A stretch of 64,000 nucleotides of DNA from Ostreococcus lucimarinus (lineage: Eukaryota): assembly GCA_000092065.1 (NCBI GenBank), contig CP000595.1, one strand, 5' to 3'. Within the stretch, counting starts at the first letter, position 1. Each line of letters opens with the position of its first letter. Positions 5,923 through 63,548 of the stretch are shown in pieces. Under the pieces are notes generated by a model that was given only the letters and a program-made list of their open reading frames with translations, was not told the origin of the DNA and did not search any database. The position numbers and the translations under genes are program-made.

Positions 5923-6011
5923 AGCGCCGCGTCGCGCGTCGTGTCGTCAGTATACATGGGCGTTCGTACGGCGAATCGGGCGTATAGTAACATAGCGCCG
6001 CGTCGCGCGTC
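5880..6011. repeat. Two identical copies of a 61-bp direct repeat separated by 10 bp, in the divergent SSIII/SET promoter
   Basis: tatacatgggcgttcgtacggcgaatcgggcgtatagtaacatagcgccgcgtcgcgcgtc occurs at 5880-5940 and again at 5951-6011. Each copy carries an ATG on both strands (catgg / ccatg). Confidence 0.9.
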
Positions 6012-7452
6012 ACATCGCGCGATGGCGCGCGCGTCGCGCGCGGAGCTCGCGCGGCGCGCGGTCGCGATCGCCGTCGCGGTCGCGGGCGTCGCGCTCGCGG
6101 CGACGCGCGCGAGCGACGACGCGCGCGCGACGGCGACGGCGACGGCGATCGCGACGCCGACGGCGCTCGACGCGCGATTTCTGCGATGGATGGACGCGCG
6201 CGCGCTCGCGGCGACGGACGACGCGCGAGCGCGCGGGATGGTCGTCGCGCGCGTCGAGGATTGGGAAGACGAACGCGCGGTGGGCGCGAGGCGAACGCGC
6301 GGGGCGTTTGGCGCGCGGGGAGGGAAAGGGGAGGTGGAGACGAGGATCGCGCGGGACGCGGCGCTCGAGCGCGGGGCGACGACGGCGGGCGCGGGGAAGG
6401 ATGAGTGGGCGCTGGCGATCGAATTGATGCGAGAGCGAGCGAAGGGAGGGGTGAGCGCGTACGCGCCGTTCGTGGAGTCGCTGTACGAACACACGCCGGC
6501 GAGGGCGGTGGAGACGTCGAGAGCGGCGCGCGCGCGGTTGGAGGGACACGCGGCGGCGGAGACGATGAGAGAGTACGAACGAGACGCGGAGGATGGATGG
6601 CGAGCGGCGCGAAGGACGTTTGAGACGTTTCCATCGATTTTTTCCGTTCATGAATTCACGCGCGCGGCGTTCGAGGAGGCGTTGGCGATCGTTCGCGCGA
6701 ACTCTTTCGAGGCGAGGAGCGAAGACGGGACGCGCGCGCGCGCGCTCGTGCCGATGGCGCATTTGCTTTTGCACGACACCGGGAGCGAGGTTCCGTGCGT
6801 GAAGATCGTAGACGGTGTGTTCGTCATAAACGTTGACGAGCACGAAGAGGGAGACGAGTTGTCGTGCAGTCACGGTGATTATTCCGACGCCGAGACGTTT
6901 GCACGATTCGGCGTGAGCGCGTTTTATTCAGCCGAGAAGAACGCGAGAAATAAGATAAAGTTTGCGTTTCCGAGCGAAATTTATTCCATGAAAAGCTTAG
7001 ATCGATGTGGATCCGTCGAAAATATCGCATTCACGGACGCGGGTGCGACGGAAGAGTTTATGTGCGCCTTGAGACTCGCCTCGGCGAATGAAACCGAATG
7101 GGCCGCAATCTCAAAGTCTAAAGCCAGCGTTCGAGCGCTTCGTAAGAAACCGCTGAGTGAGGAGAGCGAGATAGCGGTTTACGAAGCATTATTTGCCACG
7201 CTCACCGAGTTACTGAACTCCTACCCATCGAGCGATAACGAAGACGAGCGATTATTACAAAGTCGGACGCTGCAGTCGGCGCCCGACGAGGAGCGCGCGG
7301 TGACGATTCGTCTTCGAGAGAAACGTCTCGCGCTGAGTAGTTTGAATGCTGTCCAATACGCCGGTCGTCAACAACTCGGCGGTTTGTTGTTCGACAAGCA
7401 TTTTGCCGACGTGTTACCGTCTCCTGTCAACGTGCGGCAGACAAACGGATGA
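5956..7452 (+). CDS. SET-domain protein, Rubisco LSMT / SETD3-like lysine methyltransferase family
   Basis: A SET-like core is present: WALAIELMRER..SAYAPFVESL and ...ALVPMAHLLLHDTGSEV (NH/LH motif), followed by an Rubisco-LSMT-like C-terminal region. The track ORF begins at GTG (5941). In-frame ATGs are at 5956 (inside the repeat) and 6022 (MARASRAELARRAVAIAVAVAGVALAA, signal/TM-like). The start is unresolved. Confidence 0.5.
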   Translation: MGVRTANRAYSNIAPRRASHRAMARASRAELARRAVAIAVAVAGVALAATRASDDARATATATAIATPTALDARFLRWMDARALAATDDARARGMVVARVEDWEDERAVGARRTRGAFGARGGKGEVETRIARDAALERGATTAGAGKDEWALAIELMRERAKGGVSAYAPFVESLYEHTPARAVETSRAARARLEGHAAAETMREYERDAEDGWRAARRTFETFPSIFSVHEFTRAAFEEALAIVRANSFEARSEDGTRARALVPMAHLLLHDTGSEVPCVKIVDGVFVINVDEHEEGDELSCSHGDYSDAETFARFGVSAFYSAEKNARNKIKFAFPSEIYSMKSLDRCGSVENIAFTDAGATEEFMCALRLASANETEWAAISKSKASVRALRKKPLSEESEIAVYEALFATLTELLNSYPSSDNEDERLLQSRTLQSAPDEERAVTIRLREKRLALSSLNAVQYAGRQQLGGLLFDKHFADVLPSPVNVRQTNG

Positions 7453-11196: not shown

Positions 11197-11299
11197 GCGC
11201 GGCGCCGCGCGACGACGACGACGACGACGGCGACGCGCGGCGACGTGCCGGTAACACTATTCGTTTTCATCACTCCGCGACGCACGACGACGGGTGTTG

Positions 11300-11345
11300 C
11301 GCGCGCGCGATGGGCGCGCGCGCGCGATGGGCGCGCGCGATGGCG
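11300..11345. repeat. Three tandem copies of gcgcgcgatgg overlapping the GT25 start region, within the divergent promoter shared with the CULT-domain gene
   Basis: cgcgcgatgggcgcgcgcgcgcgatgggcgcgcgcgatggcgg gives three in-frame ATGs. Confidence 0.6.
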
Positions 11346-23800: not shown

Positions 23801-26800
23801 GAATGTCAATCCGAACTCCCCGACGACAGGTCCGACTACTTTGAGATCAGAAAATCGCCATACACCGCTGTCGTCTCGTTTTACTTGCAAAGTACCATCC
23901 AAAGTGATACCAGCCGATGCATGTACGGTCACAGTACGCGGCGTAATTTCCGCCGCACCGACAAAGTTATTCCCCCCGTCGTATGCGCCAATGATAATTT
24001 CACCTACGGATTGCTTGGGTGCCTCGGCGTAAACTGTTCTCTTACTATACGTCCCATTTATACGAAGGTAAGACGGTTCGCCGATCTCCATTTGCATAAT
24101 TGAATGCGCGCGATATCGAACTCCATTCAACGTCGTCGTAAACTGAACAATGTACTTTGAAGCCTCGCCAAAGTCTCCTCGTGTGGCATCGCTATACGTG
24201 ATATCGTCCGTGGATCCTACAGCTCGTGAACCAGAAGGTGGCATAGCGACAAGTCTGAGATCTGAAAATGATACTCGACCATCATTAGTCGTCTTGTTCA
24301 GCGTTCCAGTGAGCTGGGCTCCGATACTTCTCTCTCTGTAGTCTTCGTTGCTGTTGAGTGTACCCGTCACGAGTGACGCTTGTACGGTGACGTCATCAAG
24401 AGATAGCGTCTGAAGCATACTTCCACCGATGTCAACGATGTCGACTGTCAAATGTCCGATCGATACGTTTCGGGCCGCGTCGAGCACGACGACATCTGTT
24501 GGAAATAACGTAGCACTTGATATCATAGAATTCTCCGTCGCCGCGCCGGGTGTCACCTTCAAACCACCGCTCGAACCTGGTGTTACGGATAAATAGGCGT
24601 GTGCAAGTACACCAAGGTCATCACTACATGCACCATCATCATTGGTACAATCGGTTGCGGTAAAAGTGATCACGTATTCCCCAGCGGTTGGTATCGAGGA
24701 TAGCTGTGGAGTGAATGTTGCGATGCCGTCCGAAGTCTGCACTGATGACGTTGCCTCGGTGATAGCGACCTCTGACGGCCCAGAAATACTCGCCGAAATT
24801 GTGTAACCTTTCGTACCTCCTTGACCACGGTCATAGTTGATTTCAGTTCCATCGATATCCACAAGTCCAACCTTGAACGTTCCAAGTGAGAAATCTGTCG
24901 CGGCAACTCGAGCTTGATGCGAATCCGGTCCACTCAAGAGCTTAACTCCAACTGGTGGTCCATGAAGCTTCAAAATCCCTCCACTAACGTAATCAATACC
25001 GTTCAGTGCAACTGCGACCTGCGCATCTTGCGGTTGTCCGTTCGTAAGCCATGGAAGCGGACTCCCAACTGGATTGGCGCACCTTCCATTGACTACATTG
25101 CACACAGGACACTTGATTTCTGACGAACTAACGAACACCGCACTGGTCACACTCGTCGTGTTATCGTTGAACTTACATTTTAAATCGGGCGAATTCAGAA
25201 ACGGACCTCCGAGTATGCGAAGCAGTACTGGCGCGAGATCGGCATCCTCGCCTGTGAGAAGAACCTTGGCGTCATCTGAACCAATCTTTGTACTAATTAT
25301 GACGGCTGGATCGTGATAACGTAGATATATCTGACCAGAGTTCCACAGCGAGTTGGTCCAAATGCTTGTTGGATCGCTCGAATCGGTTGGTAATCCATCG
25401 AACGATATTTGGACTTCGCTATAACCTATAGTGGAGGAGTTTGAATTTGACGCCGACGGTGCCATGCATGAGAGCTCTGTCGCCGAAACATAAGTTGCTG
25501 GCGACCAAGATGTCTTCGAAAACCCATTATTAGCGTCATAAGTGTGTCCAAACCTACATGAAATCGAATGACTCATTCCACTGGCAAGGGTAGGCGAATA
25601 AAAGCCAGATCCATGAATTTTTATCGGCGTTCCAGACGTGAGCGCGCTGATGTGAGTCGGCTCGATCCCCGAAACGATCACCGTGGAGTACTTTGTGTAC
25701 GTCGTACTCGCCGCAGAACTCACCGCGAACACGCTGCGCTCGCCCGGTACGGCGCTGATGCCACCGATGGTGTGGCTTTCTTCAAATGTCCCCACACGCT
25801 TGAAACAACCGCTTATACAAGCACTAGACGTGTCCGTACCCCCTATTTCGATCTTGACGATCCGACTCTTACCGCTTTCACGCGATCCCACGGCCCAGTA
25901 CATGAAATCTTTTTCTCCTGCCGTCGCTCCGGTTTGAACGGTAGCGCTCAGAGCATCACGCTCTCCGAGCGCTGCGTCAAGAGCAATCACGGCGAGTGGA
26001 CTATCGCCTTCAGCAAAATTCAAGTCAAACATGAAGATGCATGCCGCGCGATTTTTACACCCCGGACAGTCGCCGTCTCGACCTGAAGTGCCCACGTATC
26101 CATAGCCGTTGTGCTTTGTGATCGCAGTAAACGTCGAAAAGCGTCCTTGCTTTGAATCGAGCTGCCCTTCGCACGCCTCGAGCACCTTGACGTTTGTTGA
26201 GTCCAAATACATTTCAACCCCATCGCCGTCACGAGTCCCTGAGTTTGTATTCACCTTGAACAAAGTAGGATAAAAGGTTTTGCCATCGGAGTCATCCAAG
26301 AGGGCAGATCCAGCGAAGATGACATAGTTGACACCTGTTTGAGTATGCGCCACACTCGTCTCCAACCTCATGGCGTCCGGGGCAAGCGAACATGTGGGGC
26401 ATTTAGTGCTCAGTAAACCCGGAGCTAAGAAGTTTATTCCTTTATCGTTCAAACTGCCGTCGACGTGACCAATGACGCTTCGCGACAGACCGTCTTCGTG
26501 CGTGGCCTTGTACACTATCATGCCGTTGGCTGGGTCTGTGCCCATGGCATCCAAAATGTACTGCTCTTTTGAGAAAGTCGCACTCGCCTGACCATTTGTC
26601 AATGAACTGAGAACGCAGTTCGCCCACTGCGATGAATCTGATGAGCATGTAGTACCGACATACTTGAAAAGCGAAAATCTAAACTGATTTGCCGTGGTCT
26701 GATGCCACATGTTCACTGGCACGACGACGCCCGTCAGCGCTGTCGACAAATCGGCAGCCATTTTAGCGTACACTCCGTACCAACCGCGCGACTTCTGAGG

Positions 26801-27379
26801 ATCCACATGTCCATATGCTCTCGGATGCTTCGCTGCGCACCCGCTCGAGATCCCAATACCGCAAAAATTTGGCAAAGGTGTTATCGACAATGGCACCGCG
26901 CCCGTTGTCTCTCGTCTCGGTCCGTTCGTTTGTCCCCAACCTCTCGCCGTCACTGCGTTTGAGGTAAAAGTCTCCGGATACCTCGGATCGACTTCGATCA
27001 CTCGCGTTCCATTAGCATCTTGCGCGTAGACGTAAATTACGTTCTTTCGCGTGTCTACCATGACGTCTTCGACGTACTTTTCGTCGTACGCCGTCCCGGC
27101 GGTGTCGTACTCGTACCCCGCCGTCCCATCCAAGCGCGACTCTTTCACCACCGATGGCGTGGGAACATCGCACGCAAGTCCTGCCCATCCTGCCTCGCAC
27201 GCGCACACGCCGTCTAAGCCGCATCGCCCCTGTCCAGCGCTCGCCGAGCACCCGCGCTCGCAACGATTGAACGTCAAGCCTTGACATGAGTGCGCCAACG
27301 ACGCGATGACGACGACGAGCGCGACGGTGACGAGCGCTCTGAACCCTCGGCGCGAGCTTGTACGACCGTTACCACCCAT
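17880..27379 (-). CDS. Giant (about 3080 aa) receptor-like membrane protein, 5 exons: complement join(22163..27379, 21791..22086, 21641..21731, 21456..21578, 17880..21395)
   Basis: A signal peptide is followed by an EGF-like module and a long extracellular region of beta-sandwich (IPT/TIG-like) repeats. Next come GCC2/GCC3- or ephrin-receptor-like Cys modules (CVPCKNGFYKV..CTSCP), then 7-8 TM helices and a cytoplasmic coiled coil. ATG at 27379 (MGGNGRTSSRRGFRALVTVALVVVIASLAHSCQG). The three track ORFs 22064-27634, 21763-22050 and 17880-21566 are joined in frame. The four introns are 76, 59, 62 and 60 nt with GT..AG ends; the track ORFs read through them (for example VRLTYFFFFMQNINGGLIVQ is intron 4 translated). 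Confidence 0.6.
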
Positions 27380-27920
27380 CGTCGCGCGGCGAGCGGCGCT
27401 TGAAGTCGCGCGTTCCCGCACGCTCACCCCGCGTCCCGCGCGATGGCCGCGGCTTCCGACTTCACGAGACGATGCGACGCGCGCTCGAGCGCGTCGTCGG
27501 CGCGAGCGGCATGGACGACGAAGCGAATGAGCGCTGAGACGAAGTTTGTGTGTTATACACGCACCGCTCGGCGTCGACGCGGTGGAGTGACGCGGCGACG
27601 CGTTGACGCGAGACTCGACCACCAACGACTCCAAGCGACGAATGGAATCGTCGCGGCCGCCTCGGCGACGCGGTCGTTGGTTCGTTTGTGAGTTTATTTT
27701 CGTTTCAACGAGTTTTTACGCTTTGAAGAGTAATAATGGACTATTATTTTAGATATTGAAAAAGGAAAGTTGCAAACCCCAAGTCATGTCGCGAATCGCC
27801 CGTCTCGGCGCCCAAAGGCGCTTTGAGACGACGAGGTCGAAGACGCTAAACGTGCGATTTTGAGACGACCGCTCGATCGCGTGCGACGAATTTGAGTGAA
27901 ACTTTGAAATAATTTGAAAT

Positions 27921-28835
27921 TCACGCCTCAAGTGACGCTTGAGAGAGGTTTCTATACATTTCCAGAGATTTAACGGGATGGTACAGCGCGTCGCGGCGAA
28001 TCGGCGCAAGTCTGGGTACCGCGTCAAAGTCAAAGGCCGGACGCCAGCGCATGTAAGCTACGTCGGGACCCAAATCACGGAACGAGAATGTGTCGGAATT
28101 CACCGTGAGGAAAGTTGGTAGGAATGCCTCGTGATGTCCGCTGCTTCTGGTAGAAGTGGAGAGGTGCGCCACCGCGGCGGCGGCAAAGTTTCGCGAGATC
28201 CGAAACGCGGGCAACAAGGCACTTTGCTTGCACCAATTCGGAAGGCCTCGACAGTACGTGCAAGATGGCCAGTGATTCCATGCCGTCTTGTTTGAGTACC
28301 GAAATGTTGTGTTGAAAGCGATGAGATCACTCGAATCTGATTCGTATTTCTCAAAAAGCGTTTGCCACGAGCCGGTGAAAACCACGTCGGGCTCGATGAT
28401 CCAGCCGAAGTCGATCCACGCTTGATCTGGCTGCGTGAGCCATCTCAAGGCTCTTGGCTTCACTGAAGCACCGTATATTCCTGAGAACAACTCGAACGAA
28501 TGACTTCCGTAACGCAATCGTTCCACCTCCCGAGAGGCTTGCACGACTGTCGCGTCGTCGGCAGTTGACGTGTTGAACCAAGGGCGAAACTTGCCTTCAT
28601 AAACCAACACTTGGGCAGAGATTCGTGCAGAGCGAGTGTTCGAGAAAACCGTGTCGCGAGCGAGGCGGTGCAGATCGTCTAGTTTCCTGTCGTTACCAAC
28701 CGTCAGAATTACGACTGTGTGTACGCTACTTTTTGTTTCTGGAAGGGGGTAGAGAAAGGCGAAGAGAAACGAACCACACACGAGCACAAGGAGCAGCCAA
28801 CGCTTAGTCAGTTCACGAGCCCGGCGCTTGCGCAT
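27921..28835 (-). CDS. Type-II membrane (signal-anchor) protein, putative Golgi glycosyltransferase-like, family unknown
   Basis: N-terminal anchor WLLLVLVCGSFLFAFLY followed by a roughly 270-aa lumenal globular domain. ATG at 28835. No confident motif was found. Confidence 0.4.
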   Translation of the reverse strand: MRKRRARELTKRWLLLVLVCGSFLFAFLYPLPETKSSVHTVVILTVGNDRKLDDLHRLARDTVFSNTRSARISAQVLVYEGKFRPWFNTSTADDATVVQASREVERLRYGSHSFELFSGIYGASVKPRALRWLTQPDQAWIDFGWIIEPDVVFTGSWQTLFEKYESDSSDLIAFNTTFRYSNKTAWNHWPSCTYCRGLPNWCKQSALLPAFRISRNFAAAAVAHLSTSTRSSGHHEAFLPTFLTVNSDTFSFRDLGPDVAYMRWRPAFDFDAVPRLAPIRRDALYHPVKSLEMYRNLSQASLEA

Positions 28836-31620: not shown

Positions 31621-31819
31621 GCGCGCCGGCGCCCGAGCCGTCGCGAAGTCGCGGTCGACGGACAGACATCGCGCGCCGGAGACGCCGGGCGCGTGCCTTG
31701 ATTTTCCGGGTGTGCGGACCCCTCGCGTCGACGGGTCGCGACCCGCGACGGGGGTTCACGGCGCGCGATCGATCGAGATCCGCGAAAAAGGCGACGCTCG
31801 GCGACGCTTGGCATGGCGC

Positions 31820-31875
31820 GTCCGAACGTCCGAACGTCCGAACGTCCGAACGTCCGAACGTCCGAACGTCCGAAC
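31820..31875. repeat. (GTCCGAAC)7 perfect 8-mer array (plus one degenerate copy) in the LRR/TPR divergent intergenic region
   Basis: cgtccgaacgtccgaacgtccgaacgtccgaacgtccgaacgtccgaacgtccgaacgtcgacg. Confidence 0.9.
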
Positions 31876-31925
31876 GTCCGAACGTCGACGCGCGCGCGTC
31901 CGAACGTCGACGCGCGCGCGGCGCG

Positions 31926-33695: not shown

Positions 33696-34470
33696 CGCTC
33701 GCGCGCCGACGCGCGCGTCGTCGCGCGCTCGGTGGTCCGCCGCGTCGCGCACTGCGCCGCCGACGCGTCCTCGCGGCGCCGTTTCCCGGGGCGGGCTGGG
33801 GTTTAGCCAATATTTCGCGAGGAGGGCCACGAGACTCGTATTCGAACACGATTTAAGTCGATTCGAGACACGCATCACGAGACACAAAGCACGACGCACG
33901 CCCACCGTCCTCGAACGCGGTCGCTCGCGACGCGCGCGTCGTCGAGGCCGTCTCTTTCTGACGCGCGTCGTCGGTCGTGTAGTAGGTGCGTCCGTCGAGG
34001 CGACGCGAACGCGCGCGGAACGCATCGATGCCCGCGATCGCGCGTCGGCGCGCGGTCGAGCGCGACGGAGAACGACGGCGCGGACGTCGAGCGCGCGCAT
34101 CGATCGCGGGCGTGACCCTAGGCGGCGTCGCGCGCGATTCGCGGGAAGGCATCGCGCGAGGCGTCGACGAGGGGATCGAGCGATCGATGCGTCGGATGCA
34201 GACGAAATGTTCGCGTCGTGCGCGCGTCGTGTCGCGCGCGCGCGCGGGATGCGCGCGATGAGGCGTCGTGACGCGTGTTCGATCGCGTTCGGAAGCCCTA
34301 AGGCGGGAGGACCGGGCGCGACGCGCGGGCGCGCGGACGAACGCGAGCGTCGCGGGGACGCACGGCGCGAGCGAACGTGGAAAATATAATCACTGTTTGC
34401 GTCCGGCGCGCGAACCTTGGACCTCGAACGATGAAACTGACCAGAACGCCTCCTTCCTACGCGCAGATAG

Positions 34471-37107: not shown

Positions 37108-37115
37108 CGCGTCCC

Positions 37116-37161
37116 GACGACGATGTCCCGCGCGACGACGATGTCCCGCGCGACGTCCCGG
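37116..37161. repeat. 18-bp unit gacgacgatgtcccgcgc x2.5 in the 6PGL/Cpn10 divergent region
   Basis: gacgacgatgtcccgcgcgacgacgatgtcccgcgcgacgtcccgg. Confidence 0.7.
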
Positions 37162-37365
37162 TCGTCGCTCGAGCGGTCGACGCCGCGCCGCGATCGTCGC
37201 GCGCGAGTCCGACGCCCGCGCGCGTCGCATCGGATCGATCGCGCGCGAACCACCGCGTCGCGCGGTGCGCGCGTCGTCGCTCGCACGGCGCGCATCCATC
37301 GGTCGATGCGATTCGATTCGACGCGACGCGCGCGCGCGCCGCACTCGACGACGCGACGACGGCGG

Positions 37366-37996
37366 ATGGCGACTCGACGCGCGCTCCGACCGCTCATGGA
37401 CCGCGTGCTGGTGGAGCGCATCGCGCCCGCGACGAAATCCGTGGGGGGGGTGCTGCTGCCGGAGAGCATGACGGGGAACACGGTGCGTCGACGACGAGGA
37501 CGAAGGCTCGCGAAGGATGGTCGGCGGCGACGCATGCGCGCACGCATGAATGAATGAATGAATGAATGAATGAATGCGCGCGCGCGCGCGGACATCGACG
37601 ACGGTGGCGGACGAAAAAACAAAGGATGAAAGACTGACGCGGAGAATCGCGCGATGACGACGCGGACGCAGATGAACGAGGCGAAAGTGATCGCCGCGGG
37701 ACCGGGACGAAGAACGATGAGCGGCGAGCTCGTGCCGTTGGGTGCGAGACGCGACGCGCGCGCGCGATGAAACGCGAAACGGACGCGAAACGGGACGAAC
37801 AGACGACGGTGACGACGATGACGACGACGATGACTGACGAAGGAATCGATGACGGTTCGGACGAGGCGCAGAGATTAAGGTCGGGGACGTCGTCGCGCTT
37901 CCGGAATTCGGCGGCGCCGCGGTGAACGCGGGCGACGGCTCGGGGAAGGAGTACTTTATCTATCGCGAAGAAGAGATCGTGGGCGTCGTGGAGTGA
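37366..37996 (+). CDS. HSP10: Chaperonin 10 (GroES/HSP10), 3 exons: join(37366..37482, 37672..37741, 37872..37996), 103 aa
   Basis: Exon 1 is MATRRALRPLMDRVLVERIAPATKSVGGVLLPESMTGNT. Exon 2 is MNEAKVIAAGPGRRTMSGELVPL(E). Exon 3 is IKVGDVVALPEFGGAAVNAGDGSGKEYFIYREEEIVGVVE*. These match Cpn10 consensus (L.PL.DRVLV.R...E..T.GG..LP; AVGPGRR; VKVGD.V.....G.E; EY.I..E.DI..V.E). Donors are gtgcgt and gtgcga; acceptors are acgcag and gcgcag. Exon frames were checked against the antisense track ORF 37394-38074. Confidence 0.7.
37546..37576. repeat. (TGAA)/(AATG) x8 microsatellite inside Cpn10 intron 1
   Basis: atgaatgaatgaatgaatgaatgaatgaatg. Confidence 0.9.
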
Positions 37997-43258: not shown

Positions 43259-43417
43259 TGACAGCATTTGCACGCATCCTAACATTGTAAAACACACACG
43301 AACGATTCATAGTAGTGAATCTAGAACAACGAATTGAAGCAAATACTGCGTCTGATTACACAATTGGACTAAAATAATCTGCCGTCACCGCGCTACCTAA
43401 GGTTCGTCTCGTCCCGC

Positions 43418-44141
43418 TTAAGAAATGATCAGCGCCTTCTTGAGCAAAGCACCCACGGTCTCCGACGGTTGCGCACCCTTGGCGATCCAATCCTTGATCG
43501 CCGGCGCATCCAAAGAGGATTGCTTGCGGATCGGATCGTACCACCCCAACTGTTGGATTGGCAAACCGTCGCGGCGCGCGCGCGAGTCGATGGCGATGAT
43601 GCGATAAAACGGTTCCTTCTTGCGACCCATGCGAGTGAATCGAATCTATATCGCGTCGTAATCGCGCAAACTCGTCAGTCTCCCGTTCACACTCCCGTTC
43701 ACTCCTCGTTCTCGACTCTCCTTCGCGTCTTTCGCGTTCGAAATCCCCATCCTCGCGTTCGTCTCCCCGAGGTCAAGCCCTGAGGAAATAGGGTTCCTCC
43801 CTCCCTCGCATCTCGCGCGACGTACCGCAACTCTGTTCTCCACGCGCAGCGCCGCGCGAGCGCCCGTGATGGTTCTCTTTTCAACCTATCGTCGCGCGCA
43901 TCCACCGTCCGTCGTCAGTCGTCGCGTTCGCGTCCTCGTCGTCCGCCGTCGCCGCGACCCCACCCATCGTCGACGGCGTCGCGCGATTCGGTCGTCCCGC
44001 GTCCCGCCGTCGCGCTTCGCGCGCCGCCGCGTCGTCGTCGTCGTCTCGACGATTCAATTTTACGCGACGCTCGCGCACCTTGCTCTGCACGCGCGCGCCG
44101 CCGACGAGGGCGGCGCTGAACGTGAACGTGCTCGCGCTCAT
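43418..44141 (-). CDS. RPS16: Organellar (bacterial-type) 30S ribosomal protein S16, nuclear-encoded; 3' exon 43418..43645, tentative 5' exons 43826..43885 and 44079..44141
   Basis: The 3' exon [71 protein letters not shown] matches bacterial/chloroplast S16 (VKIRLAR.G.K..P.YRIV..D.R..RDG...E.LG.YDP). Acceptor tatag at 43646-48. The bacterial N-terminal beta-strand is completed only if an upstream exon is added. The proposed upstream exons ([20 protein letters not shown] with gtacgt donor; [21 protein letters not shown] with gtgcgc donor) supply a presequence but are inferred. Confidence 0.5.
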
Positions 44142-44390
44142 GACGGACGCGGTGTGCCGCGACGACGCGCGCGGGGGCGCTCGACGCGCGACGGGCTGTT
44201 GGTGGCGTGCGATCGCATCGCGCCCGATGCGCGTCCGTCATGGGATCTCTCGCGCGCGGAATACGCGATCCCGACGCCTGCGCTCAAAAAATGCGAAAAC
44301 GAGACGTCACACGGACCGCGAACCCTCGCGCTCGAGGTCGCGCGATCGCGCTCGACGCGGCCTCTTTCGTCGACGCGCGCGCGACTCACG

Positions 44391-44938
44391 ATGATCAACG
44401 CCGACGGTGAAAATGTGGACCTGTACATCCCGAGAAAGTGCTCGTGGACGAACCGCCTGATCACGGCGAAGGATAAGGCGTCGGTGCAGCTGAACGTCGG
44501 GCATCTCGACGCGAACGGGGTGTACGACGGACGGTACACGACGGTCGCGCTCGCGGGTTACGTGCGAAGCAAGGTGCGTGCGCGCGCTCGATGCGATGGG
44601 GAAGAAATGTTTGCGTCGCCCGGGCGCGGGCGGCGGCGATGGGGGTCGACGATGCGCGCGCGACGCGGCGATCGCGCGGTGGTCGAGCGAGGCTAGGGCT
44701 TTTGAGCGCGCGCGCGGGCGACGAGGCGGGGCGCAGGACGTCGAGTGGGGGCGACGAGGCGCGTTTGGGATGGTTAAGGCGCGAAGCGGAGAGATCGCGC
44801 GCGTGGTGCGCGTGATGCGTCGTGCGAACGCGTGTACTGACGAATCGACGCTCGTTTGTTTCCCGCGAATAGGGCGAATCCGACTCCGCCATCGACTTGC
44901 TCTGGCAAAAGAAGAAGGCGGCCATCAACCAAGCGTAA
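44391..44938 (+). CDS. RPS21: 40S ribosomal protein S21e, 2 exons: join(44391..44573, 44873..44938), 82 aa
   Basis: Exon 1 is [61 protein letters not shown]. Exon 2 is [21 protein letters not shown], which matches S21e (MQNDAGE.VDLY.PRKCS..NR.I.AKDHAS.Q.N... / GESDDSILRLAK..G). Donor gtgcgt; acceptor cgcgaatag. The track shows a spurious 276-aa ORF (43866-44696) that contains exon 1. Confidence 0.75.
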
Positions 44939-45333
44939 GCGTTCCTGAATGCGTGCTTCATTCGATGGTTAGCGGAGGGTGTGGCGACGATGATAGACGA
45001 GACCAGACCGGCGACGAGCTGGATATAGACTTTGCAAACCAATCACAGGTTTCTTACATTTGAGCGCGGAGACGGCTCCTCGCATCGCGACGAACGCGCC
45101 TCCTCGCGACGAACGCGCTTCGCTTCGCTCGTCGTCATCGTTGTTCGCATCACGCGTGCGTTATTTTTCTGTTCCCACGTCATTATTACAAGTTTTATTT
45201 GCCCCCATTCTCGTCCCGAGCCTCGTTTCGAGCGCGCGCGCCGCTCCGCGCGCGCTCGCGTCCGTCGTCGCCTCGACGTCGACGCACGGTCGTCGTCGTC
45301 GATCGAAGTCGTCGATGTCTGTCATCCCTCGAC

Positions 45334-45771
45334 TCAGTCTCGCTTCAACATGTTCTTCAATCCCCCGGTCGTGCTCGTGCCCCAGAGCAACAGCGCGACG
45401 TTCACGGCGACTTGCAGCTTCCAGGTCTGCGCCACGAATTCCACCGTCTGCCGCCTCGCGTACGTGACGCGCGCGCAGTCGTAGAACATTTTCAGCGTGA
45501 AGGCGTGGAACGCGTTGCACTGCTTGGCGAACACGGCGTTGGACGTGCCCAAACGCTTGCCCAGGACGAGGATTAAAAATCCGAGTCCAGTCATGCGGGC
45601 GAAGAACCCGCTCTGCGTCGTCGCCGCGCCGACGGCGTTGAAGTAACGCAACGGCATGACGCCCGCGGTGGCGCTCCAGAATTTGTCCGGGTTGAGAAAC
45701 AGCGTCACGCCGAACAGCGTGAAGTAGTGCTGCATCGCGGTCGCGTACTGATCGACGTTACGGAAATTCAT
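45334..45771 (-). CDS. Small multi-pass membrane protein (about 145 aa, 3-4 TM), function unknown
   Basis: Hydrophobic segments YFTLFGVTLFL, GLGFLILVLG and AVNVALLLWG. ATG at 45771 (the track start 45801 is TTG). No family signature was recognised. Confidence 0.35.
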   Translation of the reverse strand: MNFRNVDQYATAMQHYFTLFGVTLFLNPDKFWSATAGVMPLRYFNAVGAATTQSGFFARMTGLGFLILVLGKRLGTSNAVFAKQCNAFHAFTLKMFYDCARVTYARRQTVEFVAQTWKLQVAVNVALLLWGTSTTGGLKNMLKRD

Positions 45772-47665: not shown

Positions 47666-47971
47666 GCGGCGCGTTCGAACGCGCGCGTCGCGCGGTGCCG
47701 ACGACCGGCGTCGCGACAGCCGGGACGCGCGTTCGAACGCGCGACGCGCGAGAGATATTTCGCGTCGGACTGTTTGCGCGTACGTGCGGTCGGTCGCCAC
47801 GAATCCGTCTCACGTCGCGCAAAATATACACACGGACGCAAACGCGATTCCGCCGGCGGCGGCGCCGCGCGCCTCGCGACGACGCGCGACGGACGCGCGC
47901 GCGCGCGAACGCGGCGCGGATCGCTCGATACGCGAATTCCGCGACGTCGATAACGCGGCGAGGCGCGAAAC

Positions 47972-49313
47972 ATGGCGAAGACGCGACGGAGAAAGCGACG
48001 AACGCACGTGGACGCGGACGCGGGCGGCGGGAGCAAAGGCAAAGACGCGGACGCGCCGCGGACGTTCGTGTTCACGCGAGGACGCATGGCGGACGCGGTG
48101 AAGGATCTGAGCGAGGATTTGCGAAAGGTGCGGGAAATCGGGGCGAGAGGAGAGGACGCGATCGGGGGAGATGGGGACGCGAGCGCGGCGAGCGAGGAGG
48201 AACGCGCGGACTGACGAGCGACGACGCGCGACGCAGGTGATGGAACCGCACACGGCGCGGAATTTGAAGGAATCGAAGAGCAATAAGTTGAAAGATTTCG
48301 TGCAAGTATCCGGACCGCTGGGGATTTCGCACTTTTTGATGCTCAGTTCGTCGGACGCGTCCAAGTATTTCAAGATTTGTCGAACGCCGAGAGGGCCGAC
48401 GTTGACGTTTAAGATTCATTCGTTTTCCCTGTCGAACGAGGTCGCAGCGACGCAAAAGAACCCGAGGAATCCAGCGAAGGCGTTTTTGTCGCCTCCGCTC
48501 GTGATTTTAAATAACTTTGGCGATGAAGCGCATCAAAAGTTGGCGACGATTACGTTTCAGAATATGTTTCCGCCTATCAACGTGCGCAAGGTGAAGCTTT
48601 CAACGTGTCAGCGCGCCGTGCTCGTGGATTACGACGCCAAGACGAAAAGATTTCAGTTTCGTCACTACAGCATCAACGCCGCGCCCGTGGGGGCGAATAA
48701 AAAATTGAAGAAGCTCTTACAGTCGAGAAACGCGCCCGATTTGGGGGACACGCAAGACGTGAGCGAATTTTTCGACAAGAGAGTCGGCGACGCGAGCGAT
48801 AGCGAAGGCTCCGACGACGAAAGTCGACGAGTGCACTTGACGCAGGACTTCAATCGCGTCGCTCACGCCGACAGCACGTCCAAGATTATCCTCAACGAAA
48901 TCGGTCCTCGCATGGAACTCGAGCTCGTCAAGGTCGAGGAAGGCATGTGCGACGGCCGCGTGTTATACCACGCCTACGTCAAGAAAACCGCGGAAGAGGT
49001 CAAAACTCTCGAGCAGAAAAAGGTCGAGCGCGAAAAGTTACGAAAACGCCGACGAGTAGAGCAAGAAGCGAACGTCAAGCGCAAGGCGCGCGAGAAGGAA
49101 ATCAAAGCGGACGCCGAGCGCGCCCGTCAAGGCAAATCCAAAAAGAAATCCTCCGCCGTGGACGAGTTCGGGAACGTCCGCGACGTCGAGGGTGAGGCAG
49201 AAGACGACGCCAAGTGGGCCGCCGCGTTCGAACGCGAAGAAAAAGAATGGCGAGAGGGCGACGTGTACGACGAGCGTTCCGGAAAGACAAAGCGTAAACG
49301 CCACGGCGACTAG
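47972..49313 (+). CDS. PPAN: Ribosome biogenesis Brix-domain protein PPAN/Ssf1 (Peter Pan), 2 exons: join(47972..48127, 48237..49313), 410 aa
   Basis: Exon 1 is MAKTRRRKRRTHV...PRTFVFTRGRMADAVKDLSEDLRK. Exon 2 is VMEPHTARNLKESKSNKLKDFVQVSGPLGISHFLMLS..., matching PPAN (PKSFVFSRGK...DLRKLMLPHTALNLKEKKRNTLKDF.NVAGPLGVTHFL). There is a Brix core and a K/E-rich tail. Donor gtgcgg; acceptor gacgcag; intron 109 bp. Confidence 0.75.
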
Positions 49314-50501: not shown

Positions 50502-51524
50502 CTATTCCTCGCACGTGTCCGAGCACTTGTCGGACGAGCCAACACACGTGCCCACGCTGCAACCGCGAAGCGCGTTGACGATGTTGCCGTCGTGCGCGAT
50601 GTTAAATACGACGACTGGGATATCGTTCTCTTCGCAAAGCGTGATGGCAGTTTGATCCATGACGCCCAAGCCGAGACGACGGACGGTTTCGTACGTCAGC
50701 GTCTTGTAGAGTTTGGCGTTGGCGTTCTTCTTGGGATCGCTGTCAAACACGCCGTCCACCTTGGTCGCCTTCAAGACGCACTGCGCGTTAATTTCCGCCG
50801 CACGAAGCGCGGCGCCGGTATCGGTGGTAAAGAAAGGGTTCCCCGTGCCCGCACCGAAGATGACCACTCGACCCTTTTCCAAGTGTCGAATCGCGCGACG
50901 GCGAATGTACGGCTCCGCCACTTCCTTAATTTCGAGCGCGCTCATCACTCGCGTCGGCACCCCTTTGGACTCGATCGCCGCCTGCAAGTTTAACGAGTTC
51001 ATCACCGTCGCGAGCATCCCCATGTAGTCCGCGCTCGCGCGATCCAACCCGTTTCCTTCCTTTTCGGCGCCTCGAAAAAAGTTGCCTCCGCCGACGACCA
51101 CCGCCACCTCGATCCCCGACATCGCCGCCTGCGCCACCTCGCTCGCGATCGACTTCACCACGTCCGGCGAGATCCCAAATCCATCCTCTCCCGCCAGCGC
51201 TTCCCCCGACACCTTCAGCATCACTCGACGCCACTTCCACCGTTCGAACCCGTCCTCGTCCTCGTCGTTCGCGCTCGCCTTCTCCCCCTTCCCCTTCTTC
51301 CGTCCCTCGCTCCTCATCGCCGATATCTCCAGTCCCTCCATCGCCGACTTCGCGTCCTCGTCCTCGCGGTCCACGATCGCGCGCGCTGTCGTCGTTCCTC
51401 CCCGTCCCCTCGCGTTCGTTCGCGCCGCCGCAATTCTTCCCCTCGGCGCGTTCGCGCGCGCCCTCGTTCGCGTCGTCGCGCCCGCGCGCGCGAATCCGCG
51501 CGCCGCGGCGTTCGCTCGCGTCAT
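50502..51524 (-). CDS. Bacterial-type UMP kinase (PyrH), plastid-type, with an unusual Cys-rich C-terminal tail
   Basis: Amino-acid-kinase fold: [77 protein letters not shown]. Tail [20 protein letters not shown]. The track ORF extends to 52268 through poly-Arg/Ala sequence judged spurious. The ATG at 51524 gives a roughly 95-aa R/A/T-rich presequence. Confidence 0.65.
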
Positions 51525-51728
51525 CGCTCGCGTTCGCGCGCGCGCGCGTCGTCGGCGTCGGCGTGTGCGACGCGCACGACGCGCGACGCGTTCGACACCG
51601 TCGGCGCGACGCCGCGCGTATGCGCAAACAGTGAGAGACCGCGCACCACCGCGCGCGCCGGCATTCCGCGGTCGCCCGATCGCGCGCGTCGCGCCGCGCC
51701 GACGGACGAGCGCTCGAGCGCCCGCGCG

Positions 51729-52952
51729 ATGCGCGCCTCCGCGTTCGATCGACGCCGCGCGTTCGCGCGCGCGCGCGCGCGCGAGGACGCGCGACGAGAC
51801 GCGCGCGCGTTCACGGTGCGCGGCGGTTGCGCGGCGCCGGCGGCGCTGACGCTGACGACGCGCGCGACGCGCGGGCGCGCGCGCGACGGCGCGCGCGCGG
51901 AGGGGAGACGGGCGAGTAATCGCGCGGTGCCGGACGTCGCGGCGAAAGCGAACGACGCGGGACGAAAGTCGCGGAAGAGGGCGATGACGTGCTACAGGCT
52001 CGCGGCGGAGCGCGATAACCCTATAGCGTGCGCGACGCACCTGGTGAAGCCGGCGGTGGCGATGTTCCTCGCGGGCGGCGTCGCCGGTGCGCTGGCGAAG
52101 ACGTGCACGGCGCCGCTGGATCGGCTGAAGATCATCATGCAGACGTCGGGGGCGTCGAGGGCGAGCGCGGCGAGCGTGGCGGCGGCGGACAAGGGGTTGT
52201 TGGCGGCGTTCGTGGCGATCGGAAAGACGGAGGGCGTGGCGGGATATTGGCGAGGAAACGTGCCGCAAGTGGTGCGAATTTTGCCGTATTCGAGCGCGAT
52301 GCTGTACTCGTACGAAGCGTACAAGAAAAAGTTGACGAATAAGGAAACCGGGGAGTTGGCGGTGCCGGCGCGTTTGCTCGCGGGCGCGGGCGCGGCGTGC
52401 ACGGCGACCATCGTGACGTACCCTCTCGATATCATTCGCCTTCGATTGAGCGTGGACACGAGTGCGAAGAGCATGGGCGACGTCGCCCGCACCATCTTGG
52501 CCAACGAAGGGCCGCTCGGGTTCTTCAAGGGTTTGCGAGCGACGTGCATTTCCATCGCGCCGTACAGCGCGCTCAACTTTTGCGCGTTTGATTTATTCAA
52601 AAAGGCGCTCCCGGAAGAAATTCGCAACGAAGCGCAAGGGATCGCCACGGCATCGCTTATGGCGACCGCGTTGGCCACGGGTTCGATGTATCCGCTGGAT
52701 ACTATTCGTCGTCAAATGCAGCTTCAAGGGAGCACGTACGCGAACATGCTCGACGCCGGTCGCGGCATCGTCGCCGCCAACGGCGTCGGTGGTCTCTTCC
52801 GCGGTTTCATCCCGAACGCGATGAAAAACATGCCGAACAAGTCCATCCAGCTCACCACGTTCGACGTCCTGAAGAAGGGCATCAGGCGTTCAGAGGTGGA
52901 GTACGCCAAAGAGGTCGCTATTTTAGCCGCCGAAAACAAAAAAATCAAGTGA
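51729..52952 (+). CDS. Mitochondrial-carrier-family adenine nucleotide transporter (TAAC/BT1/PAPST-like, likely plastid envelope/thylakoid)
   Basis: Three MCF repeats with signatures [20 protein letters not shown] and [40 protein letters not shown] matches TAAC/BT1 (GFWKGNLPQVIRVLPYSAVQLLAYESYK). ATG at 51729 gives an 85-aa Arg/Ala-rich presequence; an alternative ATG is at 51984. Confidence 0.7.
51764..51784. repeat. Alternating (CG)n tract of about 10 units inside the UMPK/carrier divergent region and carrier presequence
   Basis: gttcgcgcgcgcgcgcgcgcgcgagg. Confidence 0.7.
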
Positions 52953-53189
52953 TCGTTCGATCGCATCTTTTTCCATTGACCCCCCGACACCGACACCGAC
53001 TTCTTCACATCGCGTCTTCGCTCTGGCACTCCCATACGCGAGCTGCTCCCGATTCTCGTTCGGTTGTAACACTACGAGAATCCGACGGATTTCTGGAACG
53101 CGAGCGCGTCGCGTCGCGTCGAATCGCCTTCGAACGTTCCATCTTCGCTCACCGTCGCACTACAAAATTACACGCGCTCTCGCGCTCTA

Positions 53190-53456
53190 CTACTTACAAT
53201 CATCCCTGTACTCAAACAACCCGCAATCTCCTCCCCAGGGAAACTGCTCGCGATTGCGAATTCTCAGGTACGAGTACGCCGGGTTCTCGTGCCCGTGTCC
53301 GTGCGCCGCGTTGGACAGCGTGTACACCCCGAACCCAGCGCACGCGGGTATGACGAGCATGGAGACGGCGCGCCATTTATTCATCTCCGCTGTTTCATCG
53401 CGTCGATCGCGTTTCAGCGCGTCAGTCGCGCGCGCTCGTCGTTTTCGCGCGCGCAT
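53190..53456 (-). CDS. COX6A: Cytochrome c oxidase subunit 6a (COX6A/Cox13)
   Basis: ...ETAEMNKWRAVSMLVIPACAGFGVYTLSNAAHGHGHENPAYSYLRIRNREQFPWGGDCGLFEY aligns with plant COX6a (AAKWEKITYLGIASCTALAVYVLSKGHHHGEDPPAYPYMHIRNKEFPWGPDGLFE). ATGs are at 53456 (MRARKRRARAT..., basic leader) and 53384. It is buried in a longer spurious track ORF (53190-53984). Confidence 0.55.
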   Translation of the reverse strand: MRARKRRARATDALKRDRRDETAEMNKWRAVSMLVIPACAGFGVYTLSNAAHGHGHENPAYSYLRIRNREQFPWGGDCGLFEYRDDCK

Positions 53457-53806
53457 CGTCGTCGCGTCGCGATCGTTCGGTTCGCGCGTTCGTTCGTTCG
53501 CGCGCGCGACGCACCGATCTCTTCCTCGACGCTCGCGCCGGAGCTCATCGAGCGGGCGCGGGAAATTTGTTCGACGCGTTTGGGCGATCGCGCGGCGCGC
53601 GCGACGAGTCGGGCGAGCATGGCGAGCGCGCGTGTGTGCGGGCTGGGGTCGCGCGCGCGCGCGCGGATCCCCGGGTGGGAATCCGAGGTGGGGTGATGGT
53701 ACAAACCTATGACGAGCTATGGGATCTAATGACGACGCGATCGCGACGATCGCGCGAGGGTGAGAGGGAAAGGACACGACGCGTGACCGGGGACGACGGC
53801 GTGGGG

Positions 53807-57282: not shown

Positions 57283-57353
57283 CGCGCGCTTCGGTGCGTC
57301 GATCTCTGCCGACTCGAACGAAAAGCGCGGTCCCGCACACGACGACGCGCGGC

Positions 57354-61335: not shown

Positions 61336-62232
61336 CTATTGTGCATGCACCTTTGTCGCGAGAGGCTCGTACCACACCGGCGTGAAGCCAGCCTTGGCTC
61401 TGGCCTCGTCGTTGAACGGCGGTTTGAGCGCGCCGTGAAAATACTCACGGACAATCTCATGGAACGCCTTCACCACGCCGCTCTCCTCTGTTTCTTCACC
61501 GACATCACCGCCGTCGACTTCCCGGGCGTGCAAATATTTAAACCAGCGCAGCCCCGAAGCGCAGTGCGTGATCTCCTCTGGATAAATGACGGTTTCCAAC
61601 AACGTCGCCGACGCCTCGTCCCCGTTCCGACGAAACTTCCCGATCGTCTGCGGCAAAACATCCAAACCCCGCGCTTCGTGCACGCAGTGCTCCACCGCGA
61701 GCCTCGCCTCGAGCGAATGCGCCGTCTCTTTCGCCGTCCGCCACAGCCCGTCGTGCGCCTCCAGCTCGCCGAATCGCACGACGCCGCACTCGTCCAATCT
61801 TCGCGACAACAGCGCGAAATGCCGCCCTTCATCCGCCGCGAGCTCGACGAAATCATCATAAAACTCTTTCGGCATATTTCGAGCCACACCGAACCGCTGA
61901 ATCGCGTCCCAGGCCAAGAGCATCGCCCAGCTCTCTATGCTCGCGAGCGAGTGCAAAATCGCCGAGCGCGACTGCGCCGTCCCGCCGTTCCCGATCCGTC
62001 GCGTCTGCCCTGGATCCACCACGCGCGATATCTCTCGCACGGGATCATCGACGACGTTCTGCGTGTCCTCACGCGCGTACGACGTCGTCGTCGTCGCGTC
62101 GTCGTCGTCACCGAACCACCACCGGTGCGTTTCCGCCGTCATCACCGCCTTCTTCGCGCACGACGGCTCGAGCATCACGCACCGCGCGCGATGCACGAGC
62201 TCGCGCACTCTGCGCGCTTCGTCCTCCGTCAT
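61336..62232 (-). CDS. Ferritin-like superfamily protein (DUF455-type di-iron domain)
   Basis: Helical di-iron-like motifs (ESWAMLLAWDAI..., EGRHFALLSRRL, HE..G). The track start 62283 is TTG; ATG at 62232 (MTEDEARRVRE). Confidence 0.5.
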   Translation of the reverse strand: MTEDEARRVRELVHRARCVMLEPSCAKKAVMTAETHRWWFGDDDDATTTTSYAREDTQNVVDDPVREISRVVDPGQTRRIGNGGTAQSRSAILHSLASIESWAMLLAWDAIQRFGVARNMPKEFYDDFVELAADEGRHFALLSRRLDECGVVRFGELEAHDGLWRTAKETAHSLEARLAVEHCVHEARGLDVLPQTIGKFRRNGDEASATLLETVIYPEEITHCASGLRWFKYLHAREVDGGDVGEETEESGVVKAFHEIVREYFHGALKPPFNDEARAKAGFTPVWYEPLATKVHAQ

Positions 62233-62233
62233 C

Positions 62234-62272
62234 GCGCGCGCGGTCGGCGCGCGGTCGGCGCGCGGTCGGCGC
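62234..62272. repeat. cgcggtcggcg x3 tandem 11-mer filling the 50-bp divergent interval between the DUF455 and Pol-beta-like gene start codons
   Basis: atcgcgcgcgcggtcggcgcgcggtcggcgcgcggtcggcgcgcgtcg. Confidence 0.8.
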
Positions 62273-62282
62273 GCGTCGTCCA

Positions 62283-63548
62283 ATGGCGAACCCGTCGGCG
62301 CCGCTTCAAATCGCGACGCGTCGACGCGCGCGACCCGAAATGCCGCCGCGCGTGAAGAAAATCAAGCGCGAGTACGCCGACGCCGATGCCGGCGACGCGG
62401 ACTACGACGCGGTGTCCTCGGGCGAGGACGACGCGGCGGAGATCACGATGAAGATTACGAAGAAGAAGCGGGCGCCCAAAAAAGTTAAAACGGACGACGG
62501 CGACGCCGAGGGCGGCGCGCGGGTCAAGGCGAAGGACGAGAACGCGCCGCAGAAGATCGGTTTCGACATCACCGCCGGACCGATTCAGGACGAGGGCTTG
62601 CACGCGAAGTATAACGCGATGAATCTGGACGAGCTGAAGCAGTACATGAAGATGAATCGAATGCCGAGCAGCGAGGTGGGACAGAAGAATAAACGAATCG
62701 TGTATAAAAAGGCGGATCTCGTGGCGCACTGCGTGGATGGGGAGAAGTGGGGACGGTATCCGTTGTGTCCGAATTGTGGGAAACGAGGGACGACGACGCT
62801 GCGGGTGACGTATGCGGATGAGAATCACGGAGGTCAGGGAACGTGGAAGTGCGTCGGGTACTACGATACGGTTTTGCAGAGCGTGACGCGGTGCTCGTTT
62901 AATTACAAGGAAGATAAGGATGCACCGCGGGAGCGATTGCCGTGGCGTAAGCCCGGAGATGAGATGTCGGACGACGAGCAAGATGACGTGCAGGCGGGGA
63001 TGGACAAGCCCGTGGTGTTTCCGGACGACATGCACGCGATGGCGCCGATGGAGATGTCGAAGAAGATGGTGGAGATTTGCCGCGAGCACGGGTTGCAGTT
63101 ACCCAAGGCGGAGAACGAAGCTTTACGAGAGTGCTACACTAAGCTCCAGGCGTCGATGAATTACGACGACGAATACGACATCAAAACTGCGTTCAATTTG
63201 CTTAAGGAGGCGTACCCGCCGTTGACCAAGGAGCAACAAGCCGGCGGCGCCGACGCGAAGAATCCCGCGAATACGAAGCTATGCCAAGCGCTCGAAGCCA
63301 TCTTCCAAGCCGCGAAGACCTCACCCGAAGAACCGATGAAGTCGGCCTCGTATCGCAAAGCCGCACAGTCCATCCGTGAGATTGATTTCGAAGTCACGAG
63401 TGGCATCGCGATTAGCAAAGGCAAACTCAAGGTGCCAAACGTCGGCCCGTCGCTCGGCGCGCAAATCGAGTTTTGGATCAAGAATGGCTACTTCGAGCGC
63501 ATGGAATACTACGAACGAGGAGAAATCCCGCCGTCGTCGAAGAAATGA
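62283..63548 (+). CDS. Protein with a Cys4 zinc ribbon and a C-terminal DNA polymerase beta/lambda-like N-terminal (8-kDa lyase/HhH) domain, with no polymerase domain
   Basis: The C-terminus LCQALEAIFQAAKTSPEEPMKSASYRKAAQSIREIDFEVTSGIAISKGKLKVPNVGPSLGAQIEFWIKNG matches Pol beta residues about 40-100 ([63 protein letters not shown]). Upstream is a zinc ribbon CPNCGKRG...GTWKCVGYYDTVLQSVTRC and an SAP-like helix. ATG at 62283. Confidence 0.55.
   Translation: MANPSAPLQIATRRRARPEMPPRVKKIKREYADADAGDADYDAVSSGEDDAAEITMKITKKKRAPKKVKTDDGDAEGGARVKAKDENAPQKIGFDITAGPIQDEGLHAKYNAMNLDELKQYMKMNRMPSSEVGQKNKRIVYKKADLVAHCVDGEKWGRYPLCPNCGKRGTTTLRVTYADENHGGQGTWKCVGYYDTVLQSVTRCSFNYKEDKDAPRERLPWRKPGDEMSDDEQDDVQAGMDKPVVFPDDMHAMAPMEMSKKMVEICREHGLQLPKAENEALRECYTKLQASMNYDDEYDIKTAFNLLKEAYPPLTKEQQAGGADAKNPANTKLCQALEAIFQAAKTSPEEPMKSASYRKAAQSIREIDFEVTSGIAISKGKLKVPNVGPSLGAQIEFWIKNGYFERMEYYERGEIPPSSKK

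Follow-up and report, generated by a model that had tools for sequence, protein, structure and literature searches.

Short tandem repeats are concentrated between the start codons of head-to-head gene pairs in the window analysed here, which is a stretch of 64,000 nucleotides of nuclear DNA from Ostreococcus lucimarinus CCE9901. The repeats exceed what the local base composition generates, they are denser in divergent intervals than in other DNA, their sequences are not conserved between species, and they include copy-number variants within intervals rich in insertions and deletions. They are probably by-products of mutational slippage or duplication in weakly constrained divergent promoter DNA, rather than parts of a conserved design.

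Gene map and orientation of neighbouring genes

The gene content of the window is of the prasinophyte nuclear type (starch synthase III with CBM53, a Rubisco-LSMT-like SET protein, Ccs1/ResB and cytosolic ribosomal proteins), and its overall composition corresponds to a GC content of 0.58 with 0.136 CpG per bp. The gene map was built from open reading frames with a codon-position GC signature, together with Pfam matches and orthologue alignments. It comprises 38 genes and 37 intergenic intervals, the latter distributed as 10 divergent, 16 tandem and 11 convergent. The scans for tRNA genes and Rfam families, run on the entire window, gave zero matches, and known RNA genes were thus ruled out as the identity of the arrays or of the long gene-free gaps.

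Concerning the gene pairs, the ten listed in the original prediction were all found to be head-to-head. All of them are less than 1 kb apart, with ATG-to-ATG distances of 71–775 bp after correction of the start codons. The accompanying estimate of nine divergent intervals out of about 22 was not sustained, because some 15 intervals had been missed. The divergent share of 10/37 (27%) is what random orientation would give (25%; binomial p = 0.85). Head-to-head pairs are therefore not over-represented among the 37 intervals of the window, and what had been taken for a special, recurrent theme is an ordinary outcome of genome compaction and random orientation. Other Ostreococcus loci keep the head-to-head pairing, but they likewise keep all the local gene order.

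Most of the gene names proposed earlier are backed by Pfam, the labels 'CULT' and 'ARM-like' being those without Pfam support. Several naive first ATGs, including some on which the original prediction was based, are probably false starts, and the best estimates of the start positions are given in Table 1 together with the divergent intervals and their repeats. The 21-mer located close to the PPAN start falls within the PPAN intron.

Table 1. Divergent intervals, repeats and related gene features of the window (positions in nucleotides from its first letter).
Feature	Position	Strand	Description
SSIII start, best estimate	5754		Orthologue-corrected gene map
SSIII/SET divergent interval	5755–6021
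SSIII/SET array	5874–6011		71-bp unit x1.9, 98% match
SET start, best estimate	6022		Orthologue-corrected gene map
unk606/GT25 divergent interval	11197–11309
GT25 array	11299–11343		17/13-bp unit x2.4, perfect; straddles GT25-like start
LRR/TPR divergent interval	31621–31925
LRR/TPR array	31819–31920		Octamer CGTCCGAA x8.5 perfect (x11.5 imperfect), then 22-mer x2.1
DPH3 start, best estimate	33695		Orthologue-corrected gene map
DPH3/RPL21e divergent interval	33696–34470
DPH3/RPL21e repeat	34211–34246		Imperfect 16-mer x2.3, 80% match, including (CG)7
6PGL start, best estimate	37107	minus
6PGL/Cpn10 divergent interval	37108–37365
6PGL/Cpn10 array	37115–37155		18-bp unit x2.3, perfect; 8–48 bp upstream of 6PGL ATG
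Cpn10 start, best estimate	37366		Two exons
bS16 (organellar RPS16)/RPS21e divergent interval	43646–44390		At most about 745 bp, bS16 first exon not located
EXO1/PPAN divergent interval	47666–47971		306 bp; only weak CG-rich repeats, TRF score <50
PPAN start, best estimate	47972		Intron about 48129–48237
CG-rich low-complexity tract	51440–51548		UMP kinase 5′ end and UMPK/carrier interval; TRF 22-mer, 67% match
UMPK/carrier divergent interval	51525–51728		204 bp
DnaJ/unk296 divergent interval	57283–57353		71 bp; no repeat
DUF455 gene	61336–62232	minus	Pfam; ATG at 62232
DUF455/Pol-beta-like divergent interval	62233–62339		Start-codon conservation
DUF455/Pol-beta-like array	62236–62275		11-bp unit, GCGCGGTCGGC-type, x3.6, 100% match; TRF and direct reading of the letters
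Pol-beta-like gene, HHH_8 (Pol-beta/lambda 8-kDa domain)	62340–63548	plus	Pfam

Two stretches of the window may be described apart. The block 17880–28835 has a lower GC content (about 0.50) and a composition unlike the remaining window; it holds giant open reading frames of 1182 and 1771 amino acids, probably a single gene with introns, which show no usual codon-position GC signature and have weak matches to Ephrin_rec_like/DUF7630. The 854-bp convergent gap at 52953–53806, which separates the mitochondrial-carrier gene from the one that follows, has an unusual length for a 3′-3′ interval in this genome; within it are (CG)8 and a 19-mer repeated imperfectly (x4.4), with no convincing open reading frame and no tRNA or Rfam match.

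Repeats of the divergent intervals

The 11-bp repeat announced between the DUF455 and Pol-beta-like starts is present and perfect in the 3.6 copies delimited by TRF. The gap of 50 bp attributed to this gene pair is correct when measured to the first ATG of the Pol-beta-like frame, at 62283, but it becomes 107 bp when measured to the conserved ATG. The latter start, with the protein sequence MPPR..., is conserved in three species, with two other Ostreococcus species aligning from there, so the longer interval is the more likely one. The array lies 4–43 bp upstream of the DUF455 ATG and 65–104 bp upstream of the conserved Pol-beta-like ATG, in an interval with GC 0.79 and 0.31 CpG per bp. Its three full copies are found again in a Logan contig of the same strain (L001) and in 10 environmental contigs, which come from different samples; one of these contigs (L012) shows a single SNP. 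No copy-number variation of the 11-mer was observed across these 11 contigs. In the orthologous interval of two other Ostreococcus species (contigs L002–L005 for one and L006 for the other) the array is absent.

The other four strong arrays of the window are found at the SSIII/SET, GT25, LRR/TPR and 6PGL/Cpn10 promoters. All five perfect repeats claimed in the original prediction do exist, and several of their unit lengths, copy numbers and positions had to be corrected. The five arrays sit between the best-supported start codons, with the GT25 repeat overlapping the first ATG.

The SSIII/SET repeat, described as a 61-mer in two copies, has in fact a longer unit (Table 1). Each copy of the 71-bp unit bears an inverted pair of TATA-like motifs, ACTATAC...GTATAGT, 27 nt apart and facing both genes. 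To judge from its sequence, the duplication looks like a complete mini bidirectional core promoter that would have been copied as a whole. The first ATGs of the SSIII and SET reading frames (5922, minus strand, and 5956, plus strand) lie inside the repeat, and they are probably not the real starts. The window has two copies of the 71-mer with zero expected, and the pair never arose in 100 shuffles. That the unit belongs to a dispersed element (MITE, introner) was rejected, since the only copies in the window are the two in tandem.

In the case of GT25, the start context gcgcgcgATGG is indeed present in triplicate (ATGs at 11310, at 11327, which is out of frame, and at 11340), while the repeat unit itself is of 17/13 bp and not the 11 letters of that context. 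A change in copy number would add or remove upstream start codons. The octamer array of LRR/TPR was recovered with more copies than the seven reported, and the 18-mer of 6PGL/Cpn10 with slightly fewer than the reported 2.5. In the comparison with dinucleotide shuffles, p = 0.025 was obtained for the GT25 array and p = 0.005 for the octamer.

Low complexity of N-terminal or transit-peptide coding sequence was ruled out for the five strong arrays after correction of the starts by orthologues, while many weaker CG-rich TRF matches do fall in the first 200 bp of open reading frames. The arrays reappear in independent contigs, both metagenome and Logan ones, and thus an assembly artefact was also ruled out.

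Five of the ten divergent promoters of the window have no strong array, and three of the ten have no TRF array with a score of at least 50. The UMPK/carrier interval contains only (CG)7, at 51535–51548; the (CG)10 assigned to it exists, but at 51764–51783, that is, 35 nt into the carrier reading frame and outside the interval. In bS16/RPS21e no array scoring at least 50 was found. The DnaJ/unk296 interval is repeat-free not only in the window but also in L002 and L006.

Concerning repeats located elsewhere, the largest tandem array of the window is a coding one, a 33-bp unit x11.4 (89% match) at 4207–4575 within starch synthase III; the SSIII gene of L029 has different coding repeats, of 30 and 54 bp. 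Sixteen of the 18 (CG)n runs of the window with n of at least 6 are intergenic, intronic or no more than about 210 bp away from a start codon, so that potential Z-DNA tracts are concentrated at gene 5′ ends.

Repeat enrichment and base composition

Near-perfect arrays of at least 30 bp were found in 5/10 divergent intervals and in 0/27 of the other intervals (Fisher p = 6e-4, in a test that was post hoc). When the strong arrays of the window were compared between divergent and tandem intervals only, the result was p = 0.004. The coverage by TRF arrays (score at least 50, period at least 4) amounted to 14.7% in divergent, 1.8% in tandem and 4.9% in convergent intergenic DNA, and to 1.4% in gene interiors. 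In the first 200 bp of genes, the coverage was 16.9% for those divergently paired versus 6.8% for those whose upstream neighbour is in tandem.

GC and CpG, too, reach their highest levels of the window in divergent intervals, at 0.67 to 0.79 for GC and 0.21 to 0.31 for CpG per bp, versus 0.42–0.71 and 0.09–0.25, respectively, in tandem intervals. Taken as a whole, divergent intergenic DNA has GC 0.71, 0.25 CpG per bp and a CpG observed/expected ratio of 1.99, the values for coding sequence being 0.57, 0.126 and 1.56. Divergent intergenic DNA is thus CpG-island-like, in the sense that its GC and CpG are above those of gene bodies. GC, CpG and repeat coverage are all maximal within about 250 bp on either side of start codons.

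These figures make it necessary to consider that divergent intervals could be merely the most CG-rich low-complexity DNA, which would trigger repeat finders. The location of the GC and CpG peaks agrees with this, and many of the TRF rows in these intervals are 65–80% matches of CG-rich units. Moreover, four of the ten divergent intervals, flagged by TRF or listed in the original prediction, were not significant versus shuffles, namely DPH3/RPL21e (longest perfect repeat), UMPK/carrier (CG-rich tract), EXO1/PPAN and bS16/RPS21e. However, the five strong arrays are far above dinucleotide shuffles (p ≤ 0.025), with tracts of 40–138 bp observed versus shuffle means of 11–14 bp; the four perfect arrays were each at p ≤ 0.025 against 200 dinucleotide-preserving shuffles. 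The CpG observed/expected ratio of tandem intergenic DNA (1.97) is the same as that of divergent DNA, there is genuine copy-number polymorphism (see below), and in a lineage with only 47% GC (L028) the repeat units of divergent promoters are AT-rich, so that the repeats do not depend on CpG richness. For the five strong arrays an artefact of composition alone is excluded, and it accounts for the weaker ones; as an explanation of the whole pattern it is unlikely.

Replication and conservation in other Mamiellales

The hypothesis was drawn from the window itself, and therefore it was tested on eight loci from other Mamiellales (about 150 kb in total; GC 0.47–0.64; 50–89% protein identity to the window), which were found via homologues of three window proteins. 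Their gene maps, on which the following counts depend, were obtained with a prokaryote-style gene caller followed by hand curation. The arrays per kb were 1.66 in divergent, 0.47 in tandem and 0.19 in convergent DNA, and 0.22 in gene interiors. There were 14 divergent versus 4 tandem arrays on nearly equal numbers of bp (p = 0.014), a 3.5-fold difference in density. Counted by interval, an array was present in 8/27 divergent intervals versus 5/58 of all the others (p = 0.017), while the comparison of divergent with tandem intervals only (8/27 versus 4/31) was not significant (p = 0.11). As a divergent interval contains two promoters, the excess per promoter is less than 2-fold. The trend towards divergent intervals is thus replicated outside the window, but it is weaker. 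In two species (L006 and L018) and in the more distant L027, no repeat was found in any divergent interval.

No repeat unit was found conserved between species at orthologous promoters, and no unit of the window recurs at another promoter, either in the window or in the replicate loci. What recurs is the presence of repeats at some promoters. The promoter upstream of GT25 has four different repeats in 4/4 lineages, including CGCCGGT x4.9 in L021, and GACCGAAT x11.4 together with CGCGACGA x5.9 in L029. The SET/SSIII promoter has repeats in 3/4 lineages, namely the 71-mer of the window, a 31-mer x4.2 in L020 and a 24-mer x2.5 in L029. At the LRR/TPR promoter, repeats of unrelated units occur in the window and in the 47%-GC lineage L028. 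On the other hand, DnaJ/unk296 and bS16/RPS21e have no repeats in any of the lineages compared.

Variation among O. lucimarinus-type sequences

One of the sequences compared was L017, which matches the window at 98% identity over 21 kb; in it, diverged segments alternate with near-identical ones as in a mosaic, and some 1-bp assembly errors are possible. Five metagenome contigs found with a 31-nt anchor provided, together with L017 and the window, seven copies of the LRR/TPR promoter. The array has between about 4 and about 10 octamer units (variants CGTCCGAA/CGTCCGCG) in these seven O. lucimarinus-type sequences, and it behaves as a variable-number tandem repeat (VNTR). The 6PGL/Cpn10 interval is also variable: the 18-mer duplication is degenerate yet present in L022, L023 and L026, while in L017 it is unrecognisable and there is instead, nearby, an expanded (ATTCG)n tract, whose copy number is variable in 6PGL/Cpn10.

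Among the close relatives, the distinct indels of at least 2 bp amounted, per kb, to 12.2 in divergent, 1.5 in tandem and 0 in convergent DNA, and to 0.34 in coding sequence. In terms of events, divergent DNA accounted for 30 (in 2465 bp) and tandem DNA for 3 (in 2022 bp), the indels being about 8 times denser in the former (p = 9e-6); this excess rests on three intervals, with alignments that are ambiguous within repeats, so that the effective sample is small. SNPs per kb followed the same order, with 52 in divergent DNA, 27 in tandem DNA and 7 in coding sequence.

Other observations were made with the same set of sequences. Convergent DNA (43259–43420, 44697–45336 and others) shows 1 mismatch in 899 bp versus L017, with a coding-sequence divergence of 1.5%; this near-invariance is at least partly due to the fact that the 38–47 kb segment of L017 is nearly identical to the window. 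The Cpn10 intron (37471–37852), which contains (ATGA)x7.8 and (CG)7, is hypervariable in O. lucimarinus-type sequences, with many indels, including ones of 33 bp and 14 bp. In the LRR/TPR promoter, the environmental contig L025 has an insertion, TTTTTTTTAGGGTTTAGGGTTTAG, about 170 bp upstream of the anchor at 1193 (about 31750 in window coordinates). It corresponds to approximately 2.5 copies of the plant-type telomere repeat TTTAGGG and resembles a telo-box; it is missing from the window and from the five other contigs.

Discussion

The interpretation proposed here is that young, lineage-specific tandem duplications would arise between head-to-head start codons by replication slippage or unequal exchange. 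In this very compact genome, divergent intergenic DNA is the class that evolves fastest and tolerates indels; in Ostreococcus it is also rich in GC and CpG, and the stretch between diverging transcription start sites is probably the sole DNA without transcript cover. In DNA that evolves fast and tolerates indels, duplications would arise, persist for a time as VNTRs or as fixed duplicates, and later decay, and unrelated repeats would succeed one another at the same promoters. Slippage may thus be the operating mechanism, and its possible cause a lack of transcription-coupled repair, weak constraint or both, while the repeats might also have some effect on expression. This agrees with one half of the original prediction, since the idea of slippage hotspots is favoured by the lineage-specificity of the repeats, the VNTR character of the octamer, the indel excess and the 3.5-fold density difference; the other half, a repeat-based promoter architecture, is disfavoured, as argued below. 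Some observations do not fit so well with the interpretation as by-products, namely the post hoc character of the test in the window, the 11-mer with its constant copy number, and the three loci without repeats in their divergent intervals. In addition, selection, and not neutrality, could be the reason why repeats recur at the same orthologous promoters.

It can be conceived, in this respect, that VNTRs are kept at LRR/TPR, GT25 and SSIII/SET because their copy number tunes the expression of both neighbours, as has been proposed for promoter repeats of yeast (cited in PMC3887541). These three promoters would then, throughout the Mamiellales, keep producing new and unrelated repeats that persist as VNTRs in populations, and a change in copy number would be a selected, rapid means of retuning both flanking genes where hardly any other regulatory DNA exists; such a reading is improbable. 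In its favour, lineages whose proteins are only 55–87% identical bear unrelated repeats at the same orthologous promoters, DnaJ/unk296 and bS16/RPS21e never carry them, and natural populations vary in the copy number of the octamer. Nevertheless, the lineages are few (2–4 per promoter), and an interval that is persistently longer or less constrained explains the recurrence equally well. Selected evolvability is thus quite unlikely.

The architectural alternative, in which the units would be arrays of transcription-factor sites or core-promoter modules selected to drive both genes, is very unlikely. The inverted TATA-like boxes of the 71-bp unit, suggestive of a duplicated mini bidirectional core promoter, the multiplied start-codon context of GT25, the fixation of the 11-mer in 11 contigs from different samples and the occurrence of repeats at the same orthologous promoters in several lineages would all be in line with it. 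However, no unit is shared between promoters or kept between species, and therefore a conserved repeat-based architecture is unsupported. Furthermore, divergent promoters can lack a TRF array (3/10) or a strong one (5/10), and the copy number of the octamer varies freely.

The repeats described here may be compared with those of other organisms. In Saccharomyces cerevisiae, about 25% of genes have unstable tandem repeats in their promoters (Vinces et al. 2009, as cited in PMC3887541). According to that account, the Ostreococcus repeats are like those of yeast in being short, located in probable promoter DNA, in part variable in copy number between strains, and unconserved in sequence. They differ from them, in so far as the yeast case is described there, in that they lie in shared bidirectional promoters of 70–300 bp, within a far more compact genome, and have units mostly CG-rich instead of AT-rich. 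MNase and bisulfite data are indicated as published for strain CCE9901 (Huff & Zilberman 2014).

In land plants, tandem repeats are enriched in 5′-UTRs and in the first 200 nt upstream, while Chlamydomonas and Volvox show the opposite, with repeats highest in introns and coding sequence and lowest in 5′-UTRs (PMC3887541). Among green algae, that survey covers these two, without Mamiellophyceae, and it makes no split between divergent and tandem intervals. The window resembles the land plants, as repeat density is highest beside gene 5′ ends and the motif composition tracks the local GC.

Concerning the gene pairs, 2288 bidirectional pairs, in which 3884 transcripts take part, have been reported in Ostreococcus tauri (PMC4035068). 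The pairs of the window are like those of O. tauri in that their starts are head-to-head within a few hundred bp and that about half of the genes are paired. Nevertheless, in that work, where repeats are not treated, the pairs are viewed as a special organisation, whereas their frequency in the window is that of random orientation.

In mutation-accumulation lines of four Mamiellophyceae, the intergenic mutation rate was 2-fold higher (Krasovec et al. 2017, PMC5455958). The mutated intergenic sites had a 3–6-fold lower RNA coverage, and the authors credit mismatch repair and transcription-coupled repair. The intergenic excess of mutations fits with divergent intervals being the most variable class, although the 48 indels of that study, taken in total, have no breakdown by intergenic orientation or by repeats.

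Promoter repeats are known elsewhere, and a literature search found no paper on the contrast in repeats between divergent and tandem intervals in Ostreococcus; the pattern is thus a new instance of a known phenomenon. It is real but fairly ordinary, and it refers to about 210 kb, not to the whole genome. In its present state it is a modest descriptive result, for which a neutral explanation is plausible. If the trend extended to the whole genome, the smallest free-living eukaryotes would hold their indel and VNTR variation mainly in divergent promoters, which would then be of use for telling strains apart in metagenomes. Such promoters might also allow expression to change fast in genomes where each gene has about 200 bp of regulatory DNA, and the association of promoters with tandem repeats would extend from yeast and land plants to prasinophyte algae.
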